Positions 3,780-38,071 of a stretch of DNA of 39,005 nucleotides are shown one piece after another (position 1 is the stretch's first letter; each line of letters opens with the position of its first letter). Location of the stretch: IMG/VR virus record IMGVR_UViG_2521172734_000002. One strand, written 5' to 3'. A program made the position numbers and the translations under genes. The stretch is from a virus. Its lineage: Duplodnaviria; Heunggongvirae; Uroviricota; Caudoviricetes. Under the pieces are notes generated by a model, which saw only the letters and a program-made list of their open reading frames with translations, did not search any database and was not told the DNA's origin.

Positions 3780-4289
3780 ATGTTTGATTACCAAGTTTCC
3801 AAACATCCACATTTTGACGAAGCCTGTCGTGCATTCGCACTGCGCCACAACCTGGTGCAACTGGCAGAACGTGCAGGCATGAATGTACAGATTCTGCGGA
3901 ACAAGCTGAACCCAGCTCAACCTCATTTATTAACCGCACCAGAAATCTGGTTGCTTACCGATCTGACTGAAGATTCAACGCTGGTAGATGGCTTTCTGGC
4001 ACAGATTCACTGCCTGCCATGTGTACCGATTAATGAGGTGGCAAAAGAGAAACTGCCGCATTATGTCATGAGTGCAACCGCAGAGATCGGGCGTGTTGCT
4101 GCAGGTGCGGTATCCGGCGATGTAAAAACCAGTGCAGGTCGTCGTGATGCTATCAGCAGCATTAACTCTGTAACACGGCTGATGGCGCTGGCCGCTGTTT
4201 CATTGCAGGCCCGTTTACAGGCTAATCCTGCGATGGCGAGTGCAGTTGATACCGTTACTGGCCTCGGTGCTTCATTCGGTTTGCTGTGA
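3780..4289 (+). CDS. cII: CII-like lysogeny establishment regulator (186 CII-like)
   Basis: 169-aa ORF from ATG 3780 (the same length I recall for 186 CII); position immediately after apl. Confidence 0.65.
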
Positions 4290-4296
4290 GGTGCTT

Positions 4297-4497
4297 ATGC
4301 TGACGAAAGAACCATCATTTGCATCGCTGCTGGTAAAACAAAGCCCGGCAATGCACTACGGTCACGGCTGGATCATGGGGGAGGATGGTAAACGCTGGCA
4401 TCCGTGCCGTTCACAGGATGAATTGCTGGCAGAACTATCTACGAAAAAACGGGGGAACAAATGGCTATTGAAGGCGCTGCGGCAACTGTTCCATTAA
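4297..4497 (+). CDS. Small early protein, function unknown
   Basis: 66-aa ORF from ATG 4297 with GAGG 5 nt upstream; in the early operon. Confidence 0.5.
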   Translation: MLTKEPSFASLLVKQSPAMHYGHGWIMGEDGKRWHPCRSQDELLAELSTKKRGNKWLLKALRQLFH

Positions 4498-4802
4498 GCC
4501 CCGGTGAACGCCTGAATGGACTTAATCACATTGCGGAGTTAAGGGCGAAAGTTTTTGGCCTGAATATTGAGTCAGAGCTTGAGCGGTTTATTAAAGATAT
4601 GCGTGATCCACGGGATATCAATAATGAACAAAATAAACGAGCACTGGCTGCCATATTCTTTATGGCAAAAATTCCAGCTGAACGTCATAGTATCAGCATT
4701 AATGAGCTGACCACTGACGAAAAGCGGGAGCTGATTAAAGCAATGAATCATTTTCGTGCAGTGGTGAGCTTATTTCCCAGACGGCTAACCATGCCGAATT
4801 AA
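4461..4802 (+). CDS. Early-region hypothetical protein
   Basis: 113-aa ORF; GGGGGA RBS before ATG 4461; overlaps the preceding gene end as in packed phage operons. Confidence 0.5.
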   Translation: MAIEGAAATVPLSPGERLNGLNHIAELRAKVFGLNIESELERFIKDMRDPRDINNEQNKRALAAIFFMAKIPAERHSISINELTTDEKRELIKAMNHFRAVVSLFPRRLTMPN

Positions 4803-5330: not shown

Positions 5331-6184
5331 GCACCATCTTGAAATGGGCGGGAAATAAAACCGCCGTAATGTCCGAACTGAAAAAACATCTTCCTGCTGG
5401 TCCGCGACTAGTTGAACCTTTCGCGGGTTCCTGTGCTGTGATGATGGAGACGGATTATCCCTGCTATCTGGTTGCGGATATTAATCCTGATTTAATCAAC
5501 CTCTATAAAAAGGTTGCCGCTGATTGTGAATCGTTTATATCTCGCGCCAAAGTTTTATTTGAGATCGCAAACAGGGAGGTGGCTTATTACAACATAAGGC
5601 AGGAGTTTAATTACTCAACTGAAATTACTGATTTCATGAAAGCGGTATATTTCCTGTATCTCAATCGTCACGGTTACCGTGGGTTATGTCGCTATAACAA
5701 GAGCGGGCATTTCAACATTCCCTACGGTAATTATAAAAATCCGTATTTCCCTGAAAAAGAAATTCGCGCTTTTGCAGAAAAAGCCCAGCGAGCAACGTTT
5801 ATCTGCGCCAGCTTTGATGAAACGCTGGCGATGTTGAAGGCGGGGGATGTGGTGTATTGCGATCCGCCTTATGACGGTACGTTTTCCGGCTATCACGCTG
5901 ACGGCTTTACTGAAGATGACCAGTATCACCTGGCATCCGTTCTTGAACATCGGTCATCAGAAGGACATCCGGTCATTGTTTCTAACAGTGACACATCCCT
6001 GATCCGTTCGCTGTATCGCAATTTTACTCACCACTATATCAAGGTAAAACGCAGCATCGGCGTAGCAGCTGGTGAGAGTAAATCAGCAACAGAAATCATT
6101 GCTGTTTCCGGGCCGCGCTGCTGGGTGGGATTTGATTATTCGCGTGGCGTGGATAGTTCTGCCGTGTACGGAGTACGTGCATGA
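5327..6184 (+). CDS. dam: DNA adenine methyltransferase (Dam-like, D12 class N6-MTase), orphan
   Basis: 285 aa from ATG 5327 (GGAGG RBS); N-terminal KWAGNK SAM-binding motif and catalytic DPPY (CDPPYDGTF); no adjacent restriction endonuclease gene. Confidence 0.85.
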
Positions 6185-8595
6185 GCCATGCCGATATGAG
6201 CAACTGCTGCGGCTTTAACGAGGCTGCCGCATCGTTCTCATGGAACAGCCCGAAAAAGGCCATTAACCCTTATCTGGACCCGGCGGAAGTTGCGCCGGTT
6301 TCTGCGCTTTCAAACCTGATCACTCTGTACGCTGCCGATAACGAGCAGGAACAACTGCGCCGCGAGGCACTGAGTGATCAGGTCTGGGAGCGTTATTTCT
6401 TTAATGAATCCCGTGATCCTGTCCAACGCGAAATGGAGCAGGATAAGCTCATTAGCCGGGCAAAGTTGGCGCATGAGCAGCAGCGTTTTAACCCGGACAT
6501 GGTCATTCTGGCAGACGTCAGCGCCCAGCCCTCCCATATCAGCAAGCCGCTGATGCAACGTATTGAATACTTCAGCAGCCTGGGCAGGCCAAAGGCTTAT
6601 TCCCGCTATTTACGTGAGACGATTAAGCCATGTCTGGAACGACTGGAGCATGTACGCGACAGCCAGCTATCTGCATCTTTTCGTTTTATGGCAAGCCATG
6701 TAGGGCTGGACGGCCTGCTGATTCTGCCTGAAATGAGTCAGGATCAGGTGAAACGCCTGTCTACCCTTGTCGCTGCGCATATGAGCATGTGCCTTGATGC
6801 AGCTTGTGGTGATTTGTATGCCACCGATGACGTTAAGCCAGAAGAAATCCGCAAGACATGGGAAAAGGTGGCAGCGGAAACCCTGCGTCTGGATGTCATC
6901 CCGCCTGCGTTTGAGCAACTCCGTCGGAAAAGAAACCGCCGTAAACCCGTGCCCTATGAACTCATTCCGGGTTCGCTGGCGCGTATGTTGTGCGCCGACT
7001 GGTGGTACCGGAAATTATGGAAAATGCGTTGCGAATGGCGGGAAGAGCAGTTGCGTGCTGTCTGCCTGGTCAGCAAAAAAGCATCTCCCTATGTCAGCTA
7101 TGAAGCCGTGATGCATAAACGTGAGCAGCGCCGCAAGTCACTGGAGTTTTTCCGTTCTCATGAACTGGTGAACGAAGAGGGCGACACGCTGGATATGGAA
7201 GACGTGGTAAACGCCAGCAGCAGCAACCCGGCGCACCGCCGCAATGAGATGATGGCCTGTGTTAAAGGTCTGGAGCTTATCGCGGAAATGCGCGGTGACT
7301 GCGCCGTTTTCTACACCATTACCTGTCCGTCACGTTTCCATTCCACGCTCAATAACGGCAGACCAAACCCAACCTGGACAAATGCGACGGTAAGACAAAG
7401 CAGCGATTATCTGGTCGGCATGTTTGCTGCATTTCGTAAGGCGATGCACAAAGCCGGGTTGCGCTGGTATGGCGTGCGGGTGGCTGAGCCGCATCATGAC
7501 GGTACAGTTCACTGGCACCTGTTGTGTTTCATGCGCAAAAAAGACCGCCGCGCCATTACTGCATTGTTGCGTAAGTTTGCCATCCGTGAAGACCGCGAGG
7601 AACTGGGTAATAACACTGGTCCACGCTTTAAATCTGAGCTGATAAACCCGCGCAAAGGAACGCCGACAAGCTACATCGCGAAATACATCAGTAAGAACAT
7701 TGACGGGCGTGGTCTGGCTGGCGAGATCAGCAAGGAAACGGGTAAATCCCTGCGTGATAACGCTGAATACGTTAATGCCTGGGCGTCTCTGCATCGTGTT
7801 CAGCAATTCCGCTTCTTTGGTATTCCGGGACGTCAGGCTTACCGTGAACTTCGCTTGCTGGCTGGTCAGGCGGCAAGGCAACAGGGTGACAAAAAAGCAG
7901 GTGCGCCGGTACTGGATAACCCGCGTCTTGATGCCATTCTGGCTGCTGCTGATGCTGGTTGTTTTGCCACCTACATCATGAAGCAGGGCGGCGTACTGGT
8001 TCCCCGCAAATATCACCTCATCAGAACCGCTTATGAAATCAACGAAGAGCCAACCGCCTATGGCGATCACGGTATTCGTATTTATGGCATCTGGTCACCC
8101 ATTGCAGAGGGCAAGATCTGCACTCATGCAGTGAAGTGGAAAATGGTTCGTAAGGCCGTTGACGTTCAGGAGGCGGCAGCCGACCAGGGCGCTTGCGCCC
8201 CTTGGACTCGTGGCAATAACTGTCCCCTTGCTGAAAATTTGAACCAACAAGGGAAAGACAAATCAGCTGATGGGGATACCAGAACGGACATTACCCGCAT
8301 GGATGACAAGGAGTTGCACGAATACCTGCACAGTATGAGCAAAAAAGAGCGCCGGGAACTGGCTGCAAGGTTACGCCTGGTGAAACCGAAACGGCGTAAA
8401 GACTACAAACAGCGAATTACAGACCATCAGCGACAGCAGCTCGTCTATGAACTGAAGTCCAGAGGATTTGATGGCAGCGAGAAAGAGGTCGATTTACTCC
8501 TTCGCGGCGGCAGTATTCCGTCAGGAGCAGGCCTGCGTATCTTCTATCGGAACCAGCGTTTGCAGGAAGATGATAAGTGGCGGAACCTGTATTAA
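6181..8595 (+). CDS. A: Replication initiation protein A (rolling-circle nickase, P2 gpA-like)
   Basis: 804-aa ORF; His-hydrophobic-His motif (TVHWHLLCF) and paired active-site tyrosines (SYIAKYISK); ATGA overlap with the dam stop. Confidence 0.9.
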
Positions 8596-8687
8596 TTACG
8601 CGGGTTAACAATTCGTGCTCTTAATAATACCAGGCATTTCAGGCTGATGAACGTAAAAAAACGTTTTACATCAGTAAGATTATTATA

Positions 8688-9339: not shown

Positions 9340-9765
9340 CTACTTAATTGAGTCCAGTAACAAGTTACAGTTACTCTCATTGTAGAGAGAACGAGCAATT
9401 AGTGTTACCTGCTTTCCATTCATTCCCGGCTTATCCCATAACACAGCTTCTTGCGACGCCACAAATTCAGCATAATCAATTATGCGTTGTTCGTGATCTG
9501 GTTCCTCATAGCCAAAGTATGAGAGCGCATCGTTGTAAGCGTGGTAAGCTGCTTTCTGTAATATCTTGATATCGGCTGTAGGTACTTGCTCCGTGTAGCT
9601 AGGATCTAATTGTGTGCTACTGCCATAGAATGCACATGAAAGGTAAGATATTGATTTCTGTTGAGCTTTAGTTCCTTTCTCATAGTTTTTAGCTGTTACC
9701 GCCTGAACTGGGACGCTAACAAAGCTTGCAACCAGAATTAAAATTAATACGTAAAAGCTTTTCAT
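9340..9765 (-). CDS. Secreted/periplasmic protein of unknown function (cargo)
   Basis: 141-aa ORF with a classic signal peptide (MKSFYVLILILVASFVSVPVQA|VT); AT-rich; opposite strand to surrounding phage genes. Confidence 0.6.
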   Translation of the reverse strand: MKSFYVLILILVASFVSVPVQAVTAKNYEKGTKAQQKSISYLSCAFYGSSTQLDPSYTEQVPTADIKILQKAAYHAYNDALSYFGYEEPDHEQRIIDYAEFVASQEAVLWDKPGMNGKQVTLIARSLYNESNCNLLLDSIK

Positions 9766-10038
9766 TTTGACCTCAGCCGAAACGTTAGAGAGACTATCGA
9801 AATTTGTAAAACCCGTGGCGATTCAGTTTGAGATCCTCCCCCTTACATGATTTTTAATCAAATATATGCTTTTGTAAGCATACCTGTTAACCGAATTATT
9901 TATTTTTAGAGATCTTCCGACATACTGATTATGCCCGCTGAGGAGTTCACCTTGCGTAAGGTCCGATTCGCTTTACTCGTCTGTGAATGTCTATGCTGCA
10001 TGAGATTGCATGATCGTTTGAGGATCGTTTTTGCTAAG

Positions 10039-10062
10039 GCCCGCCAGAACTGGCGGGCTTTT
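10039..10062 (+). terminator. Rho-independent terminator-like hairpin
   Basis: GCCCGCCAG-aa-CTGGCGGGC followed by TTTT. Confidence 0.5.
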
Positions 10063-10107
10063 GCGTAGATCATGCACCTGCATGAAAACCACTACATAAA
10101 GCGGGCA

Positions 10108-10126
10108 GGCGTGGCGGGGATACGAG
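10108..10126. other. Candidate cos (cohesive end) site
   Basis: GGCGTGGCGGGGA matches the first 13 nt of the 186/P2 cohesive-end sequence as I remember it (GGCGTGGCGGGGAAAGCAT); lies between the replication region and Q/P as expected. Confidence 0.35.
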
Positions 10127-10253
10127 CGCGCGCAGAGAGTTAGTTTGGCATTTGAACCTAAGTCATTAGTGATAACTTGGTGTCATTTTTTGGGTTGTAA
10201 ATGATGTAAGTATCCATTTAATATGGATATATCTACTCTTAAGGCGCAGAAAA

Positions 10254-10823
10254 ATGATGGGGCCAATCAAAATTTACTCTTGCGGTACATATCATCCTTG
10301 GCGATATCGAGGAGAGCGAAATCCTCGTTCCGGGGATAGACTTTCAAAGGCAATGATGGATTTGAAGGACGCTTCAAATTCCGGGTATGCAAAGGCTGTT
10401 AATATTTTTACCCAACTTTTAACTTCTAGCCTCCAAAGCTATGTGATTGGTAGGGTTGCTTTTACCGACGTGCCCTTTGAGATAACAATTGTTCCTTCTC
10501 ATGCTGAGGGAAAAGTATCTCAAGCTTTAATAAAAATAGCGCAAGATATTGCGAAAAAATTTCCTAATGCTGTATATAACCAATCATTACAGAGAAAAAC
10601 AACAGTAGTGAGTGCTCATAAGGGGGGCGGAGATCGTTCTGTCGAACATCATATGTCAACAATCGGAGTTACATCCAATGTGGCTGATAAGGTTATTCTC
10701 CTTATTGATGATGTTACTACAACTGGGGGGAGTATGACGGCGTGCTATTATCTGTTAAGATATGCAGGCGCAAAGACAATATTGCCACTGGCGTTACTAG
10801 AAACAGCTAATTATGAGGAGTGA
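10254..10823 (+). CDS. Phosphoribosyltransferase (PRTase)-domain protein, ShosT-like candidate toxin/effector
   Basis: 189-aa ORF with type-I PRTase PRPP-binding motif VILLIDDVTTTGGSM; stop overlaps the start of the DprA-like gene; AT-rich. Confidence 0.65.
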   Translation: MMGPIKIYSCGTYHPWRYRGERNPRSGDRLSKAMMDLKDASNSGYAKAVNIFTQLLTSSLQSYVIGRVAFTDVPFEITIVPSHAEGKVSQALIKIAQDIAKKFPNAVYNQSLQRKTTVVSAHKGGGDRSVEHHMSTIGVTSNVADKVILLIDDVTTTGGSMTACYYLLRYAGAKTILPLALLETANYEE

Positions 10824-11790
10824 AATAATGCACCCTTCCCAATTCAAAATATTGTTAGGTCTATCGGTACAGGTTGATAGACTTGCATCAGAACAAGGGT
10901 TGCTTAAATTATTTAACGATATTCCATTCCATATTATTTCCGATGAATATGAATTGGTTGAGTGTGTTAATTCAGCCGGGATTTTAAAATCCACCTTTTC
11001 TATAGCGTCATTGCATAATGCTGAAGACTATTTGAGCAAGCATTTGTCATTGGGGATTGTTCCAATTCCTTTTGGAGATGCTAAATACCCTATTTGTTTA
11101 GCAATTACGCCAAATCCCCCAGCAATGTTATATTTGAAGGGGGACGTAAATATTCTTAGTGAGATGCCAGGAGTTGCAATTGTTGGTTCTCGTGAAGTTT
11201 CTATGGCAGGGGAAGAAATTACGAAGAGAATTACCACGAAAATCTGTGAAAGAGGTGTGGTGATTGTAAGCGGCCTAGCTATTGGTACTGATACAAATGC
11301 ACACAAGGCAACTCTTAAGGCAGGTGCTAAAACAATTGCTGTATTAGCTCATGGTTTAGAGAGCGCTAAGCCTAAACAAAATGCTAGATTAGCAAATGAA
11401 ATTTTATCTAACGGTGGGGCTTGGATTTCTGAGTATCCTGTAGGGAGGCCTGCATTCAAGCAGTCATTTGTGCAACGCAACAGAATCCAGGTAGGTTTAT
11501 CAGCAGTTTCGATACTAATCGAAGCAGCAAAAAATAGTGGGACAATGACGCAGGCGGATTTTGCTATTAAAGCGGCAAGACCTATTTTTGCTGTTGTACC
11601 GCATAAGGCTGATAATCCACTGGGACTTAATTGCGAAGGAACTCAACAACTTGTTGATAATGAATTGGCTAATCCCTTGCGCACTAGTCAAGACTATGAT
11701 TCACTGATGAATGTAATATCTGAGTCAATAAGCAAAATTAAGATAAATTCTGATATTTATAGATCTAATATGAGTCACTTTCTGATTTAG
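10813..11790 (+). CDS. DprA/Smf-like (SLOG/Rossmann) protein, ShosA-like candidate partner
   Basis: DprA-type motif VGSREVS...VIVSGLAIGTDTNAHKATLKAGAKTIAVLAHGLE; likely true start ATG 10828 after AGGAG (10817-10821). Confidence 0.7.
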   Translation: MRSEIMHPSQFKILLGLSVQVDRLASEQGLLKLFNDIPFHIISDEYELVECVNSAGILKSTFSIASLHNAEDYLSKHLSLGIVPIPFGDAKYPICLAITPNPPAMLYLKGDVNILSEMPGVAIVGSREVSMAGEEITKRITTKICERGVVIVSGLAIGTDTNAHKATLKAGAKTIAVLAHGLESAKPKQNARLANEILSNGGAWISEYPVGRPAFKQSFVQRNRIQVGLSAVSILIEAAKNSGTMTQADFAIKAARPIFAVVPHKADNPLGLNCEGTQQLVDNELANPLRTSQDYDSLMNVISESISKIKINSDIYRSNMSHFLI

Positions 11791-11815
11791 TGGGTAGTTT
11801 TACTACCCATTAAAT

Positions 11816-12850
11816 TTAATTGGATAAATTATATGGAGAAAAGATAATAACTTCTATGTTAAGCCATTCGTTAAGTTCTTGAATCCTTCTTTGCAATGGG
11901 ATTAATTCATTTCTAACAAACACTTTGCTTGCTTTTTCCACATCACCAAAACCCCCAACATTGCTAGGCATAATCCCCATCATCTGAGGCGGCACGCGGT
12001 GGGCAGCCATCATGTCATCCCGGCTCACGTTTTTGATGTTCAGAAACTCATCTTTTGCCGCTACCTCTGACAGTGGGATGATCTGAATACCATCCTTTTT
12101 GCCATTGGGGGAGTACATAAACAGGTTGCGGAAATTGCCTGGACCTTTGGCGCTTTTCATCGCGTTGCGGAGGTTGTTCACATCCTCCTGGTTCTGCGCG
12201 GCATCGGTCATGTACATGATGAAGCCAGCATGACTGCCGTTAATGTAATACTTTCGACGGAACAGCGTGGCGGACTCGTTGAGCAGGGCGGATGGAATGG
12301 CAGAAAGATAACCGGGCAGGCCGTAGATCTCCTGGTTGATGTCCGGTTCCATCAGATGAAAGATACTGCCTTTCGTGAACTGATACGGCTGCGTGGTCAT
12401 GCCGTATTGCACAAACCAGTAGGTATCCAGGTCTAACCCGCGTCGGGTGTATTTTGCCAGGGCCGGTTCAAGGGCGATAACTTCACCGAAGCGGTTCGTG
12501 CGTTTCTCCAGGTAGGCGTTACCAAATACCAGATAGTCCTGCACAAAACGTGAAAAAGCCTGCTGGCTGAGCAGCGGGTGAGGGATGTAGGTGCTGGTCA
12601 GAATGTTGCACTTTACTGCAATCGGTGAGCTGTGATGCACGGCGGCGCGAAAGGTGCGCGCCAGCCCGTCGAAACTCACTGGCGGCTCATACCAACGATC
12701 TGTCTGTACGCATTCCACATAGTCCAGCAGTTCGCGGCGGTCCAGTACAGGAATGGGATCGCCAAAGCTGAATGCTTCGGCTGAAGTCTGGCTTTTATGC
12801 TGGGTCTGGTTCTGTGACGCAGCGCGGTTCTTCTTACTCTTTCCCATCAA
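11816..12850 (-). CDS. Q: Portal protein (P2 gpQ-like)
   Basis: 344-aa ORF collinear with the P2 Q protein; overlaps the P start; leftward Q-P operon. Confidence 0.9.
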   Translation of the reverse strand: MMGKSKKNRAASQNQTQHKSQTSAEAFSFGDPIPVLDRRELLDYVECVQTDRWYEPPVSFDGLARTFRAAVHHSSPIAVKCNILTSTYIPHPLLSQQAFSRFVQDYLVFGNAYLEKRTNRFGEVIALEPALAKYTRRGLDLDTYWFVQYGMTTQPYQFTKGSIFHLMEPDINQEIYGLPGYLSAIPSALLNESATLFRRKYYINGSHAGFIMYMTDAAQNQEDVNNLRNAMKSAKGPGNFRNLFMYSPNGKKDGIQIIPLSEVAAKDEFLNIKNVSRDDMMAAHRVPPQMMGIMPSNVGGFGDVEKASKVFVRNELIPLQRRIQELNEWLNIEVIIFSPYNLSN

Positions 12851-19354: not shown

Positions 19355-19748
19355 AGCAGTGCCTTATGTCCGTAATAACCCGGACAAACTGCATCTGTTT
19401 GTAGATAATGGTTCGCTGGTTGCCACCGGGGCCAGCTCCATGTCATGGGAGTATCGTTACACCCTGAACGTGGTGATAGAGGATTTCAGCGGCGACCAGA
19501 ATCTGCTGATGGCCCCGGTTTTGCTGTGGCTGCGTGATAACCAACCTGATGCCATCAATAATCCGGCATTACGGGAAAAGCTATTCACCTTTGAGGTGGA
19601 TATTCTGCGCAACGATGTCTGTGATATCAGCCTTAACCTGCAGCTGACAGAGCGTGTGGTGGTCAACACTGACGGCAGTGTGTCGAGCGTTGAAGCTATA
19701 GCGGAACCCGATGAACCTGAAGAAATGTGGACGGTGAAACGTGGCTGA
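19317..19748 (+). CDS. R: Tail completion protein R (P2 gpR-like)
   Basis: Probable GTG start at 19317 (MNKPQSLRHALNKA...); collinear with gpR (..FVDNGS..RYTLNVV..LRDNQPD..). Confidence 0.8.
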   Translation: MNKPQSLRHALNKAVPYVRNNPDKLHLFVDNGSLVATGASSMSWEYRYTLNVVIEDFSGDQNLLMAPVLLWLRDNQPDAINNPALREKLFTFEVDILRNDVCDISLNLQLTERVVVNTDGSVSSVEAIAEPDEPEEMWTVKRG

Positions 19749-20190
19749 ATTGCAGAAGGTGGACGACTGGCTGAGTGCCTTGCTGGCGAATCTGGAGCCT
19801 GCCGCAAGAAGCCGCATGATGCGCCAGCTGGCGCAGGAACTGCGCCGGACACAGCAGCAGAATATCAGGATGCAGCGCAATCCAGATGGCAGCAGTTATG
19901 AGCCGCGACGGGCAACAGCACGCAGTAAAAAAGGCCGCATCAAACGCCAGATGTTTGCAAAGCTGCGCACCACAAAATACCTGAAAACTGCCGCCAGCGC
20001 CGATTCTGCCAGCGTGCAGTTTGCTGGCAAGGTGCAGCGTATTGCCCGTGTTCATCACTACGGCCTGCGAGAACGTATTCAACGAATTAATATGTCTATT
20101 AAGTATCCATGTAGAAAGTTGTTGGGAGTTAATGAACAATTAATCATTGACTTAGAAAAATTATTAGTAGAGTATTTCGCTCAAAATTAG
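19741..20190 (+). CDS. S: Tail completion protein S (P2 gpS-like) with an AT-rich, apparently replaced C-terminal end
   Basis: MAELQKVDDWLSALLANLEPAARSRMMRQLAQELRRTQQQNIRMQRNPDGS... is gpS-like; the last ~35 codons (from about 20085) are sharply AT-rich. Confidence 0.8.
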   Translation: MAELQKVDDWLSALLANLEPAARSRMMRQLAQELRRTQQQNIRMQRNPDGSSYEPRRATARSKKGRIKRQMFAKLRTTKYLKTAASADSASVQFAGKVQRIARVHHYGLRERIQRINMSIKYPCRKLLGVNEQLIIDLEKLLVEYFAQN

Positions 20191-20207: not shown

Positions 20208-20591
20208 ATGCAACAGTTTATTCAGATTTTACAAACTATTTCCACATGGCCGTTTGCTTTCATCTTTGGTCTATGTATTTTATATCGTCCTATAAATATG
20301 TTGTTTAGTAGATTTATTGAAAGTAATACGGCAAAAGCTAAATTAGGATTTGTGGAGCTAGAGATTGGAGAGCTAGCTAAAAAAGGAAGAGAGGCTGTTG
20401 ATAATTTTAATGAGTTAACCATTGTTATGGCTAAGACTCGGTTGTTGGAGTTAGAGGTTACTAAAGAGAACTTTTCTGCAGCGTTTTCATCTAATCAGCA
20501 AGTTAAATTAAATGCATTGATGTTGGAGCTAGAAAAAAAGATTCATTATCTTGAGGAAGTAAGAGATGAAGGTTTATCCATTAAAAAATAA
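20208..20591 (+). CDS. Small membrane-anchored coiled-coil protein (cargo cassette gene 1)
   Basis: 127-aa ORF; N-terminal hydrophobic segment (ISTWPFAFIFGLCILY) then charged heptad-like region; AT-rich; no clear SD, so the start is uncertain. Confidence 0.45.
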   Translation: MQQFIQILQTISTWPFAFIFGLCILYRPINMLFSRFIESNTAKAKLGFVELEIGELAKKGREAVDNFNELTIVMAKTRLLELEVTKENFSAAFSSNQQVKLNALMLELEKKIHYLEEVRDEGLSIKK

Positions 20592-21780
20592 AATGGTTAT
20601 ATCTTTTTCATCCTCAGTCCATATGGCTATAATTGTGTATATCCAAGATGGATTGGTCTTATCAGATATTATCCATGAAAATAACGTGCAATCAGGTGAG
20701 ATTGATTTTGGTATACCACTTTTTGATGCAAGTGAAACAAGTGAGAAAATTGTTGATCACCTCCTGACGTTGATAGGGGATACAAAAAATTTACATATTG
20801 ATTTATTAAGGAGATACTATGATGCGCAATTAGAGCTTTATAACTCAGTTATCTCTAGTAAATTCTTAAATGAACTTTTTATCGATTGTCCTAATTTAGC
20901 GTGGGGAATTGTTTTAGATAATTATTACGGTGTTAATTTTCATACTGTTGAGTATTTGGCAAGAATAAAAAGAAAACGATTAATTTCTATTTTGGCTGGT
21001 ACTGCTGCTGAGGAAAAGATAGTAAATATACTTAAGAAGACTTCATTGCTGAATGGAAGAAAGGATGAGTTTCTCTGGCTATCACGTTGTTTAAGTAGTG
21101 ATGCTATTATTGAATCGTATAAGCATAAAAAGAATATATCTATACAGGAGCTTTATTTAGCATATAGTTATCCAATTTTTTGTGGTGCTAATTTATTGGA
21201 AAGTTTGTGCGAAGAAAAAAAAGATACTCTTCAAGATTATAAATACGGAATGATATCTCTTGAAAAGTTGGTACGGGATAGTATACGAATAGGCGAAAAC
21301 ATAGGTATAAAATCTGCCAAGACAATGGTTATGAATTGTAATAGTAGGGAAGATGTGAAAAACCTTCATGATAAGTGGTCATTACGGTTGAGAAATTCGA
21401 CGACCTATCTTGAAAAGGATATTTTCTTGGATGAGCCAAGCATACAGGTTATTGACGGAATAGAGTATATCAACTCAATAAACAAGTTGATTAAAGAGGG
21501 TAAAGAAATGAAGCACTGCTTGGCTTCATATAAAGAAAAAGTTATCAATGGTGAAAGTTATATATACAAGGTTTTAACTCGGTGGGGAGAGCGAGTAACA
21601 GTCGAGTTGGCATTGTCAAATGGTATCTATTTGCTAAAGCAAGCAAAAGGTATTTGTAATTCTCAACCTAGTGATCTCGCTCTTAATTATATTCATACAT
21701 GGTTGGAAAACGAAAACAAATACCTGAAGGAGGCTTTAGAGTTGTATGCTGGCGACTTTAAAAGAGCTATGAGTGCTTAG
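20566..21780 (+). CDS. 404-aa protein of unknown function with conserved-looking EGKEMKHCLASY motif (cargo cassette gene 2; possibly PcfJ-like)
   Basis: Long ORF with GAGGAAG RBS; overlaps gene 1 by 26 nt; AT-rich; inserted between S and V where P2 has no gene. Confidence 0.6.
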   Translation: MKVYPLKNKMVISFSSSVHMAIIVYIQDGLVLSDIIHENNVQSGEIDFGIPLFDASETSEKIVDHLLTLIGDTKNLHIDLLRRYYDAQLELYNSVISSKFLNELFIDCPNLAWGIVLDNYYGVNFHTVEYLARIKRKRLISILAGTAAEEKIVNILKKTSLLNGRKDEFLWLSRCLSSDAIIESYKHKKNISIQELYLAYSYPIFCGANLLESLCEEKKDTLQDYKYGMISLEKLVRDSIRIGENIGIKSAKTMVMNCNSREDVKNLHDKWSLRLRNSTTYLEKDIFLDEPSIQVIDGIEYINSINKLIKEGKEMKHCLASYKEKVINGESYIYKVLTRWGERVTVELALSNGIYLLKQAKGICNSQPSDLALNYIHTWLENENKYLKEALELYAGDFKRAMSA

Positions 21781-24668: not shown

Positions 24669-25985
<1,317 letters not shown>

Positions 25986-28267: not shown

Positions 28268-28294
28268 CCCCGATTTTTATTCAAGGAGATGATC

Positions 28295-28861
28295 ATGCTT
28301 ATTGGTTATGTACGCGTGTCAACAAATGACCAGAACACCGATTTGCAACGTAATGCACTGAATTGCGCGGGATGTGAGCGGATTTTTGAGGACAAAATCA
28401 GTGGCACTAAGTCCGACAGACCGGGGCTTAAAAAACTGCTCAGGACACTATCGGCAGGAGACACTCTGGTTGTCTGGAAGCTGGACAGGTTGGGGCGCAG
28501 TATGCGGCATCTTGTTACGCTGATAGAAGAGTTGCGCCAGCGTGGCGTGAATTTCCGAAGCCTGACTGACAGTATTGATACCAGTACCCCAATGGGCCGT
28601 TTCTTTTTTCATGTTATGGGTGCCCTGGCTGAAATGGAACGCGAACTGATAGTTGAACGTACCAGGGCAGGGCTGGCTGCAGCTCGTGCCAAAGGCAGAG
28701 TAGGTGGACGCCGTCCTAAGTTGACCACCGAACAGTGGGCACAGATTGGGCGTTTACTTGAGGCCGGAGAATCAAGACAGCGTATTGCACTGATTTTTGA
28801 TGTAGGCGTTTCTACTATTTATAGAAAATTTCCGGCAAATAAGAGCAATGAATCTCCCTGA
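28295..28861 (+). CDS. Serine DNA invertase (Gin/Cin/Pin/Hin family)
   Basis: MLIGYVRVSTNDQNTDLQRNAL...LVVWKLDRLGRSM...GRFFFHVMGALAEMERELI, near-collinear with Gin; AAGGAG RBS 6 nt before ATG 28295. Confidence 0.9.
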   Translation: MLIGYVRVSTNDQNTDLQRNALNCAGCERIFEDKISGTKSDRPGLKKLLRTLSAGDTLVVWKLDRLGRSMRHLVTLIEELRQRGVNFRSLTDSIDTSTPMGRFFFHVMGALAEMERELIVERTRAGLAAARAKGRVGGRRPKLTTEQWAQIGRLLEAGESRQRIALIFDVGVSTIYRKFPANKSNESP

Positions 28862-36172: not shown

Positions 36173-36230
36173 TCGTTAAAAAACAGTGCTTCTAACATCA
36201 TGATTTTAAACAGCATAAATTTCAGGCAAC

Positions 36231-36273
36231 AAAAAACCCATCAACCTTGAACCGAAATGGCGGGGTTGATGGG
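36231..36273 (-). terminator. Terminator-like hairpin in the host flank (possibly for ybjL)
   Basis: Minus strand: CCCATCAACC...GGTTGATGGG stem followed by TTTTTT; about 110 nt downstream of the ybjL stop. Confidence 0.45.
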
Positions 36274-36385
36274 CTCCACAAAATGGGGACATCAAAGAAA
36301 AGCAGTGGCACTAATTAAGACTGATGCCCTGCGGAAAAGTTCTGCGGTTGTGCAAAAAAATTTCATTTTCAGGGCAACTTCAGTT

Positions 36386-38071
36386 TTATCCTAATCCTGG
36401 CCATACCATGACGATGATTGTCCCTGCCAGCGTCAGCAGGACGTTGGCGATTGCGTAGGTGCCCGCATAGCCCAGCGCAGGGATGTTACTGCGAGCTGTA
36501 TCACTGATGATCTCCATTGCCGGCGCGCAGGTGCGTGCGCCCATCATTGCGCCGAACAACAGTGCGCGGTTCATTCGCAATACATAAGCACCGAACAAGA
36601 AACAGATAACCACGGGCACAAGACTGACAATTAATCCGGCAATCAACATCTGACCGCCAATCGCGCCCAGGCCGTTATTAATACCGCTACCGGCGCTCAG
36701 ACCAACGCCTGCCATAAACACCATCAAGCCGAACTCTTTCACCATGCTTAATGCACCTTGCGGAATGTAACCGAAGGTCGGGTGGTTAGCACGCATAAAG
36801 CCCAGCATAATTCCGGCGAATAACAACCCGGCAGCGTTCCCCATGCCGAAACTGAATGTGCTGAACTGGAAGGTGATCATCCCGATCATCAGCCCAATAA
36901 CAAAGAAGGCGCAAAATGCCAGCAGGTCAGTGACCTGGCTGTGAATCGAGATAAAGCCGATGCGATCGGCGATGGTTTTTACGCGACGGGCATCACCGCT
37001 GACTTGTAAAACGTCACCTTTGTTAAGCACGACGTTGTCATCTATCGGCATCTCAATCTGGCTACGAATGACGCGGTTAAGGAAGCAACCGTGATCGGTC
37101 AACTTCAGTTGTGCGAGACGTTTACCTACAGCGTTATGGTTTTTAACGACCACTTCTTCAGTGACGATACGCATGTCGAGAAGGTCACGATCGAAAACTT
37201 CTTTACCGTTACGGAAGCTGGGATCGAGTCGGGCATGGGCGTCGGGATAGCCTACCAACGCTATTTCATCGCCCATTTGTAGCACGGCATCACCGTCTGG
37301 ATTTGCAAGAATCCCGTTACGTCGAATACGTTCAATGTAGCAGCCGGTTTGTCGATAAATACCCAGTTCACGCAGATTTTTGCCGTCGGTCCAGGCCACG
37401 AGCTCCGGGCCGACGCGATAGGCGCGGATCACCGGTAAATAAACCTTACGGTTGGCATCAGTGTCCAGGCCACGTTCGCGGGCGATTTGCTGGGCGCTGG
37501 TCTGTAAGTCCTGATGCTGCAATTTCGGCAAGTAACGCGCACCAACAATCAAACTCACCAGACCGATTAAATAGGTTAAGGCATACCCGAGGCTCAGATT
37601 ATCCAGTGCCAGTGAGAGCTGCCTGCTTTCCATGCCGGAATGACGCAGTGTATCGCCAGCACCGACCAGAACCGGTGTCGACGTCATAGAGCCTGCTAAC
37701 ATACCGGCCGTCAGGCCAATATCCCAGCCAAACAGCTTACCTAACCCTAAGGCGATCACCAGCGCACTGCCAACCATCACCAGTGCTAACATTAGGTAAT
37801 TTTTCCCATCGCGAAAAAAAATGGAAAAAAAGTTCGGTCCGGCTTCGACCCCGACGCAGAAAATAAACAGCATAAAGCCAAGATTAAGCGCATCGGTGTT
37901 AATGCTGAAATGTTGTTGGCCTAATAACAGCGATACGACTAAAACGCCAATGGAATTACCCAGTTGGATCGAACCAAGTCGTAACTTTCCGAGACATAGC
38001 CCAAGCGCGAGGACCACAAATAATAACAGAATGTAATTCCCATTTAACAATTCGGCGACGTTTATATTCAC
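36386..38071 (-). CDS. ybjL: Putative AAE-family transporter YbjL (host gene)
   Basis: 561-aa multi-pass membrane protein whose sequence I recognise as E. coli YbjL; chromosomal GC and codon usage. Confidence 0.85.

Follow-up and report, generated by a model that had tools for sequence, protein, structure and literature searches.

The window examined here, a 39,005-nucleotide stretch of viral DNA (IMG/VR record IMGVR_UViG_2521172734_000002), is an Escherichia coli P2-like prophage inserted between rcdA and ybjL. In the slot between its cos site and the portal gene Q lie two adjacent genes that encode a phosphoribosyltransferase (PRTase) of 189 amino acids (aa) and a DprA-like protein of 320 aa. 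We consider the cassette that holds them to be probably a lysogenic-conversion module of the PRTase-toxin/DprA-like-antitoxin class, which PADLOC lists as the ShosTA family, with a short toxin that consists of the PRTase domain only. A preliminary description of the window, made from the sequence without database searches, had drawn attention to this pair; both open reading frames (ORFs) lie where it had placed them and contain the motifs it quoted (VILLIDDVTTTGGSM and SGLAIGTDTNAHKATLKAGAKTIAVLAHGLE). The features of the locus are as follows.

9983-10133: cos block of the P2-like backbone, with 96% identity to the closest P2-like phage records, from E. coli and Klebsiella; similarity to other P2-like phages and prophages stops at 10133
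10108-10126, plus strand: equivalent of the cos cleavage site, the 19-mer GGCGTGGCGGGGATACGAG, aligned to P2 cos
10134-11870: variable AT-rich cargo cassette in the cos-Q slot, including the last ~18 codons of Q
10134-10253, plus strand: 5' non-coding leader, presumed promoter region from a reading of the sequence
10254-10823, plus strand: stand-alone ShosT-like PRTase, 189 aa, WP_016245841, presumed toxin
10815-10820, plus strand: Shine-Dalgarno sequence GAGGAG for the DprA-like gene, within the last PRTase codons
10828-11790, plus strand: DprA-like protein, 320 aa, WP_000553634, presumed antitoxin (alternative ATG at 10813)
11784-11816: 15-bp stem-loop where the DprA-like and Q genes converge (folding energy of the RNA -18.1 kcal/mol; z = -5.4 relative to shuffled sequences)
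11816-12850, minus strand: portal gene Q, the right edge of the cos-Q slot, with the terminase gene P beyond

The preliminary description spoke of two overlapping AT-rich genes. Their base composition is as described, the interval 10134-11815 having a GC content of 38.9% against 53-57% in gpA, most of Q, and P; the overlap probably does not exist. The RefSeq start of the DprA-like gene is the ATG at 10828, which follows GAGGAG at a distance of 7 nt and coincides with the beginning of the PHROG profile. The alternative ATG at 10813, which would make the gene overlap the PRTase gene by 11 nt, lacks a Shine-Dalgarno sequence, so that a 4-nt gap between the genes is most likely. The same junction, a 4-nt gap or a 4-nt overlap, occurs in related loci (L004, L014 and L016), and translation of the two genes is probably coupled. 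Downstream, the arms of the stem-loop cover the stop codon of the DprA-like gene (11788-11790) and, of the Q stop codon (11816-11818), the first base; the structure is a probable bidirectional terminator. Rfam and tRNA scans of the cassette found no RNA gene, and a retron-type or RNA-antitoxin arrangement is thus unsupported. Upstream of the PRTase start, at a distance of 25-43 nt, is a perfect 7-bp palindrome (TATCCAT/ATGGATA with a 5-nt spacer, 10211-10229). None of the other alleles checked has it, so we do not claim it as an operator, and it may be a chance occurrence in AT-rich DNA.

The PRTase is named 'phosphoribosyltransferase' in RefSeq and matches Pfam Pribosyltran above the cut-off (28.9 bits). 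Its loop for binding phosphoribosyl pyrophosphate (PRPP) is VILLIDDVTTTGGS, with the acidic pair D152/D153. The preliminary description had flagged the shortness of the protein; the length is correct, and the protein is complete, all 25 aligned homologs (down to 45% identity) being 187-197 aa long. An N-terminal C-G-x-Y-H-P motif (C10, G11, Y13, H14, P15) is invariant across the aligned PRTases, as are H83, R128, D152 and D153 in the 26-homolog alignment, and a K/R-x4-R motif, similar on inspection to K280...R285 of ShosT, is kept family-wide. A profile search of 1.84 billion representatives returned 754 PRTase clusters at E <= 1e-10; of the best 148 of these, 120 are no longer than 210 aa, so that the stand-alone form of ~190 aa is the common form of the family. 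A minority is fused to other domains, among them AAA_11 (helicase-type), HAD at the C-terminus and a second PRTase. We rejected the idea that the PRTase is a truncated ShosT, its length and N-terminus being conserved across the family.

The predicted fold of the PRTase is closer to that of ShosT than to those of the salvage enzymes. In a Foldseek search of the Protein Data Bank (PDB), the AlphaFold model (predicted local distance difference test, pLDDT, 88.8) retrieved the ShosT structures 8zvc, 8zvd and 8zvb as its three top matches (E 7.5e-7 to 1e-5), the best with a template modelling (TM) score of 0.59 over 165 columns. The fourth match is Helicobacter pylori ComF, and salvage PRTases come after it (E >= 1.4e-4). 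In phmmer searches, salvage PRTases in the PDB match solely at the ~45-residue PRPP loop, with E >= 0.014, and the protein falls far below the cut-off of every listed NCBIfam model of salvage PRTases and PRPP synthetases. D152/D153 align with ShosT D331/D332, whose mutation abolishes toxicity (PMC11961720; PMC12961424). ShosT toxicity also needs R285, with contributions from H240 and K280; judged by motif order and spacing, H83, K123 and R128 would correspond to the PRPP-contacting H240, K280 and R285 of ShosT. These further equivalences rest on motif inspection and Foldseek because the sequence alignment stops at the PRPP loop: hhalign aligned ShosT at this loop alone, both with a 26-sequence PRTase profile and with the profile broadened by 148 representatives.

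The second protein, 'DNA-processing protein DprA' in RefSeq, matches Pfam DNA_processg_A with 201 bits. Its model (pLDDT 94.1) starts with a helical N-domain of SAM-like type, continues with the Rossmann domain of DprA and ends in a helix of 29 residues, with no winged helix. This architecture is that of ShosA and differs from that of Smf, the housekeeping DprA of E. coli; unlike E. coli Smf, the protein has no match to Pfam SAM_SMF or DprA_WH. It also stays below the thresholds for bona fide DprA/Smf (TIGR00732, 181 vs a cut-off of 191.15; PRK10736, 161 vs 495). R122 and R217 align with ShosA R139 and R234, the essential binders of single-stranded DNA (ssDNA), and K183 with the RecA-contacting K200. 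In a fold search with the model, ShosA and bona fide DprA could not be told apart, with similar scores for 3maj, 8zva and 3uqz. In every context read, the members of its clade are linked to a PRTase. The preliminary description had named in advance, as evidence against kinship with ShosTA, a DprA-like protein that clusters with bona fide DprA and a PRTase that clusters with salvage enzymes; instead, the former falls in a clade of its own and the latter apart from those enzymes.

We scored the PADLOC profiles directly on the proteins, without the thresholds of PADLOC's own pipeline. The ShosT profile PDLC03962 matches the PRTase with E 2.7e-18 and 64.7 bits, residues 7-184 being aligned to positions 52-211 of the 237-position profile, while the ComF-like protein YhgH, used as a negative control, scores just 27 bits. 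The ShosA profile PDLC03961 matches the DprA-like protein with E 1.4e-69 and 232.7 bits, and homologous pairs of other genera match the same two models. As PADLOC defines the family, by a ShosT-profile protein with an adjacent ShosA-profile protein, the pair belongs to ShosTA. ShosTA of E. coli APEC O1 and KTE181 is treated in Rousset 2022 (as 'DprA+PRTase'), Millman 2022, Pu 2025 (PDB 8ZVA-8ZVD) and Yang 2026. Like ShosTA, the pair consists of adjacent genes for a PRTase-fold protein and a DprA-like protein of ~320 aa, carried as cargo beside cos in the gpA-gpQ hotspot of P2. The earlier suggestion of a known, ShosTA-like system type is supported by the PADLOC matches, the ShosT-like predicted fold and the location in the hotspot, yet the pair is not the characterised ShosTA. 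The characterised ShosT proteins (APEC O1 and KTE181) have 424 aa, with an N-terminal HAD-like pyrophosphatase domain (1-164) followed by a PRTase domain of 260 residues (165-424), whereas the window protein has a shorter PRTase domain alone and no HAD match in Pfam. The pyrophosphatase mutant R56A of ShosT keeps most of its toxicity, the domain contributing marginally (PMC11961720), which makes a PRTase-only toxin plausible. The two cassettes also sit on opposite sides of cos, that of the window on the Q side and ShosTA on the gpA side, and both are transcribed away from cos.

The pair is conserved as a unit on a variety of mobile elements. The same sequence occurs in 14 complete E. coli genomes, the copies in WAT and four others being 100% identical over the 2.1-kb query. 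The pair is carried by 62 of the 5426 complete E. coli genomes, 14 with the window allele and 48 with a diverged one. About 1% of E. coli genomes thus have it, in each case within a mobile element. Other genera retain the pair, with identities as low as 33%/43%, and both proteins lose similarity in parallel from locus to locus; given this conservation and the 14 E. coli genomes, the genes are not chance ORFs. The order is PRTase, then DprA-like, in every context read, and most loci have the 4-nt gap or overlap.

A second allele, which has diverged, occupies the cos-Q slot of the prophage in enteropathogenic E. coli (EPEC) E2348/69 (CP059840). There, the 191-aa PRTase ORF (4163-4738 of locus L024) is intact and lies upstream of the annotated DprA gene, with no coding sequence in the RefSeq record. 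In the Salmonella phage SopEPhi (AY319521; L027, 4501-6049), the pair is orf14/orf15, both annotated as 'unknown', directly before Q; its PRTase is 63% identical, and SopEPhi is the sole record with a match among 50,697 deposited phage genomes. A Hafnia P4-like satellite carries the pair downstream of its cos, and Mu-like prophages of Shewanella and Aeromonas carry it as well. In Burkholderia and Vibrio the pair is found beside a Dus-family gene, with a phage-type integrase adjoining the Vibrio pair; in Pseudomonas it lies in an islet next to HicAB and RES-Xre; and it is also present in Atlantibacter and Pseudidiomarina. In Enterobacter asburiae (CP134641; L006, 5500-10400), an intact pair remains in a heavily decayed P2-like remnant at rcdA-ybjL, next to an ars operon, where just fragments of gpA, Q, S, V and D are kept. 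In keeping with a single unit, 10 further PRTase clusters each have a longest contig of the same length as that of a DprA-like cluster.

The cos-Q slot is a site of variable cargo. The assignment of cos made in the preliminary description is supported by alignment of GGCGTGGCGGGGATACGAG with the annotated P2 cosL/cosR 19-mer GGCGAGGCGGGGAAAGCAC (14 of 19 positions identical, flanks conserved), and an extended cos pattern is also found upstream of the gene pair in loci L001, L003, L004 and L024, the last being E2348/69. The pair accordingly lies in the gap between cos and Q, as had been proposed. Strain 64EVA is 100% identical to the window up to 10133, 7 bp past the cos 19-mer, and diverges thereafter; homology with other P2-like prophages restarts at 11862-11898, within the last ~18-27 codons of Q. 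These two points place the cassette at 10134 to about 11870. In related P2-like phages, the same slot holds a TIR-domain protein (phage 500465-1; L025, 4723-6025), an Abi-like Hypoth_Ymh protein (vB_EcoM-813R9; L026, 4731-5882) or a 416-aa hypothetical protein (64EVA; L002, 4436-5686), and each cassette comes with its own last ~18-27 codons of Q.

The cassette thus belongs to the cos-proximal hotspot cargo of P2-like phages, lying between gpA and gpQ by cos and varying among related prophages. The gpA-gpQ region is the P2 defence hotspot as defined by Rousset et al. 2022 (PMC9122126). As with other P2/P4 cargo, these are AT-rich, non-essential lysogenic-conversion genes by cos that vary among near-identical prophages; P2 old/tin and the other hotspot cargo encode proteins unrelated to the PRTase/DprA-like pair. 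In P2 itself, the cos-Q interval is just 167 bp with a terminator, and the cargo (old, tin) is on the gpA side. The arrangement table of Rousset et al. lists WP_016245841 with a DNA_processg_A partner, but the pair was not tested there; the DprA+PRTase system tested was the APEC O1 long form (pFR105), which protects against T7 and lambda (PMC9122126). The system type and the hotspot are already known and the arrangement is catalogued; the pair belongs to a short-toxin, toxin-first subtype.

Taking ShosTA as described (PMC11961720; PMC12961424) as the template, a mechanism can be proposed. The prophage would express both genes from one translationally coupled transcript. The PRTase would bind PRPP through its PRPP loop and flexible loop, and phosphoribosyl transfer to an acceptor, or consumption of PRPP, could disturb nucleotide metabolism or DNA integrity. 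The DprA-like protein, predicted to bind ssDNA and probably to interact with RecA, would keep this damage harmless. An infecting phage may shut off host expression, or its replication intermediates and ssDNA may flood the cell; the antitoxin would then be depleted or diverted, and the PRTase could arrest or kill the cell before the phage cycle is completed, protecting the lysogen population. Toxicity, neutralisation, trigger and anti-phage activity of the short pair are thus predictions from its relatives.

Several observations weigh against assigning the pair to the ShosTA-like toxin-antitoxin class. On the side of the toxin, the narrow APEC-O1-type ShosT model PDLC03012, which gives APEC O1 ShosT 973 bits, does not match the PRTase; the PRTase sequence can be aligned to ShosT over about 41-44 residues at the PRPP loop alone; and a phmmer search of the PDB with the PRTase did not recover ShosT even at E = 10. 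The gene order differs, ShosA (6414-7397) preceding ShosT (7399-8673) in APEC O1 and the PRTase gene coming first in the window. The isolated PRTase domain of RqlH, the toxin of a related system, is not toxic alone (PMC4670107). On the side of the antitoxin, the DprA-like protein resembles E. coli Smf (39% identity, 126 bits) a little more than it does ShosA (34%, 103 bits), and the dimer residues L181/F182, the RecA contact R206, and R261 of ShosA are replaced by K164/A165, A189 and D244. The housekeeping Smf of E. coli K-12 (L012, 3437-4561) itself scores 195 bits (E 3.5e-58) on PDLC03961; a match to the ShosA model alone therefore shows just a DprA-like protein, not a defence gene, and it is the adjacency of the two genes that carries weight for membership. 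A simple scan found no match to the sigma-70 consensus upstream of the PRTase gene, so the promoter in the leader is only presumed. Finally, we found no experimental study of the short, toxin-first form in the literature searched.

Within the same toxin-antitoxin class, the pair could instead follow the logic of PsyrTA/RqlHI, with neutralisation by direct binding of the DprA-like protein to the PRTase (type II-like), and with DNA or DNA-bound bases, not the free purine pool, as the target of the PRTase. The two systems would share a PRTase domain of ~180 aa as the genotoxic element, a DprA-like restraint and a toxin gene that comes first, as in rqlH-rqlI. The window PRTase, at about 190 aa, equals in size its counterpart domain in RqlH (residues 509-690), and RqlI co-immunoprecipitates with RqlH only if that domain is present (PMC4670107). 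The PRTase domain of the family is also found fused to helicase-type and other domains, and the PADLOC PsyrT and PsyrA models matched as well (E 3e-10 and 1e-28). These matches are, however, weaker than those to ShosTA (ShosT 64.7 vs PsyrT 37 bits; ShosA 232.7 vs PsyrA 98.5 bits). The defining toxin of PsyrTA/RqlHI, a RecQ-like helicase with a C-terminal PRTase, is not encoded by the pair, which includes no helicase and matches PsyrT at profile positions 553-686 of 689 only; the antitoxin has 320 aa, whereas the PsyrA profile has ~398 positions. RqlH's PRTase domain is non-toxic by itself, whereas the window family is a strongly conserved stand-alone protein, and ShosT is its best structural match. 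We regard this logic as unlikely here, although it deserves to be kept in mind.

The principal alternative outside the toxin-antitoxin class, which we disfavour as improbable, is a phage-borne pair for handling ssDNA, akin to ComFC and DprA, that would serve recombination, replication restart or DNA uptake to the advantage of phage or host. In both cases a PRTase-fold protein is paired with a DprA-family mediator of ssDNA and RecA. Among the references tested, the DprA-like protein is closest to housekeeping Smf, with the ssDNA-binding residues kept; the best NCBIfam match of the PRTase is TIGR00201 comF, its fourth-best structural match is the ComF noted above, and the broadened family profile scores E. 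coli YhgH at 28 bits and ShosT at 19 bits. The PRTase nevertheless is not a ComF/ComFC member: it scores 28.5 on TIGR00201 vs a cut-off of 233.55 and lacks the multi-cysteine N-terminus of ComF with its zinc finger (C10 alone is invariant), just as its partner falls short of the DprA models and has no DprA_WH or SAM_SMF domain in Pfam. The genes of the window are adjacent, mobile and absent from most strains, whereas smf and yhgH of E. coli lie elsewhere. Moreover, the pair is AT-rich, sporadic cargo of hotspots whose other contents are TIR, Abi-like, old/tin and ShosTA genes, adjoins toxin-antitoxin modules in Pseudomonas and remains intact in a decayed prophage.

The mobility and persistence of the pair could also be read in terms of addiction. 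A toxin-antitoxin pair that merely stabilises its prophage or satellite, with no anti-phage role, would account for an intact pair in a prophage remnant and for its presence on many different mobile elements. We give this explanation little credence: defence has been demonstrated for the long-form relative from this hotspot, post-segregational killing would be of little gain to an integrated prophage, and neighbouring cargo slots hold defence genes, one of them in this same prophage (a PD-Lambda-1 homolog, see below). That ordinary housekeeping genes, a salvage PRTase and the cell's DprA, came to lie in the prophage by chance, as the RefSeq names might suggest, is already refuted and has next to no probability, as neither protein reaches an NCBIfam equivalog cut-off, salvage PRTases match at the PRPP loop alone, E. 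coli has its own smf, and the genes occur in few genomes and always in mobile elements. The reading that we retain is that of a PRTase-toxin/DprA-like-antitoxin module of the ShosTA family with a short toxin.

Apart from the cassette, the window encodes the following neighbouring features.

1-1053: integrase
6181-8595: replication endonuclease gpA
between gpA and the 141-aa hypothetical gene: DinI-like gene
9340-9765, minus strand: gene for a hypothetical protein of 141 aa, lying between gpA and cos

The 141-aa protein has a hydrophobic, signal-peptide-like N-terminus, and its sole match is PHROG 7437, of unknown function; the gene is also present in 64EVA but missing in the prophages of ST131 and E2348/69. 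An AT-rich gene on the minus strand (1137-2813), located between the integrase and the C repressor, encodes a 558-aa protein with DUF4041 and T5orf172/MUG113 domains. This protein matches PADLOC PD-Lambda-1 (E 4.7e-120), which makes the gene a second probable defence gene of the prophage. A very AT-rich island on the plus strand (20208-21780, GC about 0.32), located between a virion morphogenesis gene (19741-20190) and the baseplate gene V, encodes a 127-aa hypothetical protein and a 404-aa PcfJ-like protein; PADLOC gave no match for the island. The segment 27084-28861 resembles an invertible tail-fibre segment: a tail-collar fibre fragment and a tail-fibre assembly gene, both on the minus strand, adjoin a Hin/Cin-type resolvase-invertase gene (28289-28861). 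Rfam identified an isrC-like small RNA within the tail-fibre region (25728-25850, minus strand) and RybB at 36228-36306 (minus strand). The latter sits between the last large phage ORF (34741-35841) and ybjL (36386-38071), suggesting that the prophage ends beside rybB.

For the prophage itself, the practical value of the finding is modest: a P2-type prophage would have a second probable defence module by cos, besides the PD-Lambda-1 homolog. The same pair sits unannotated in the well-known phage SopEPhi (as orf14/orf15) and in EPEC E2348/69. For annotation, caution is needed with the broad ShosA profile, which also scores housekeeping DprA highly. The scientific value lies in the short subtype, as work on ShosTA has so far been done on the 424-aa two-domain toxin. 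A toxin that has just 189 aa by nature, with the same PRPP site, would demonstrate the pyrophosphatase domain to be dispensable, and would be easier to handle in biochemistry. It is possible, and we suggest it only tentatively, that the stand-alone PRTase of ~190 aa and the DprA-like protein of ~320 aa represent a separate, more widespread minimal lineage, of which ShosT, by fusion to a HAD domain, and PsyrT, by fusion to a helicase, are elaborations. If so, the pair would work without a pyrophosphatase, perhaps with another acceptor or through direct contact of toxin and antitoxin; its partner would have been recruited from the competence-type DprA of the cell; and the short form would be the simplest system in which to find the substrate of PRTase toxins.

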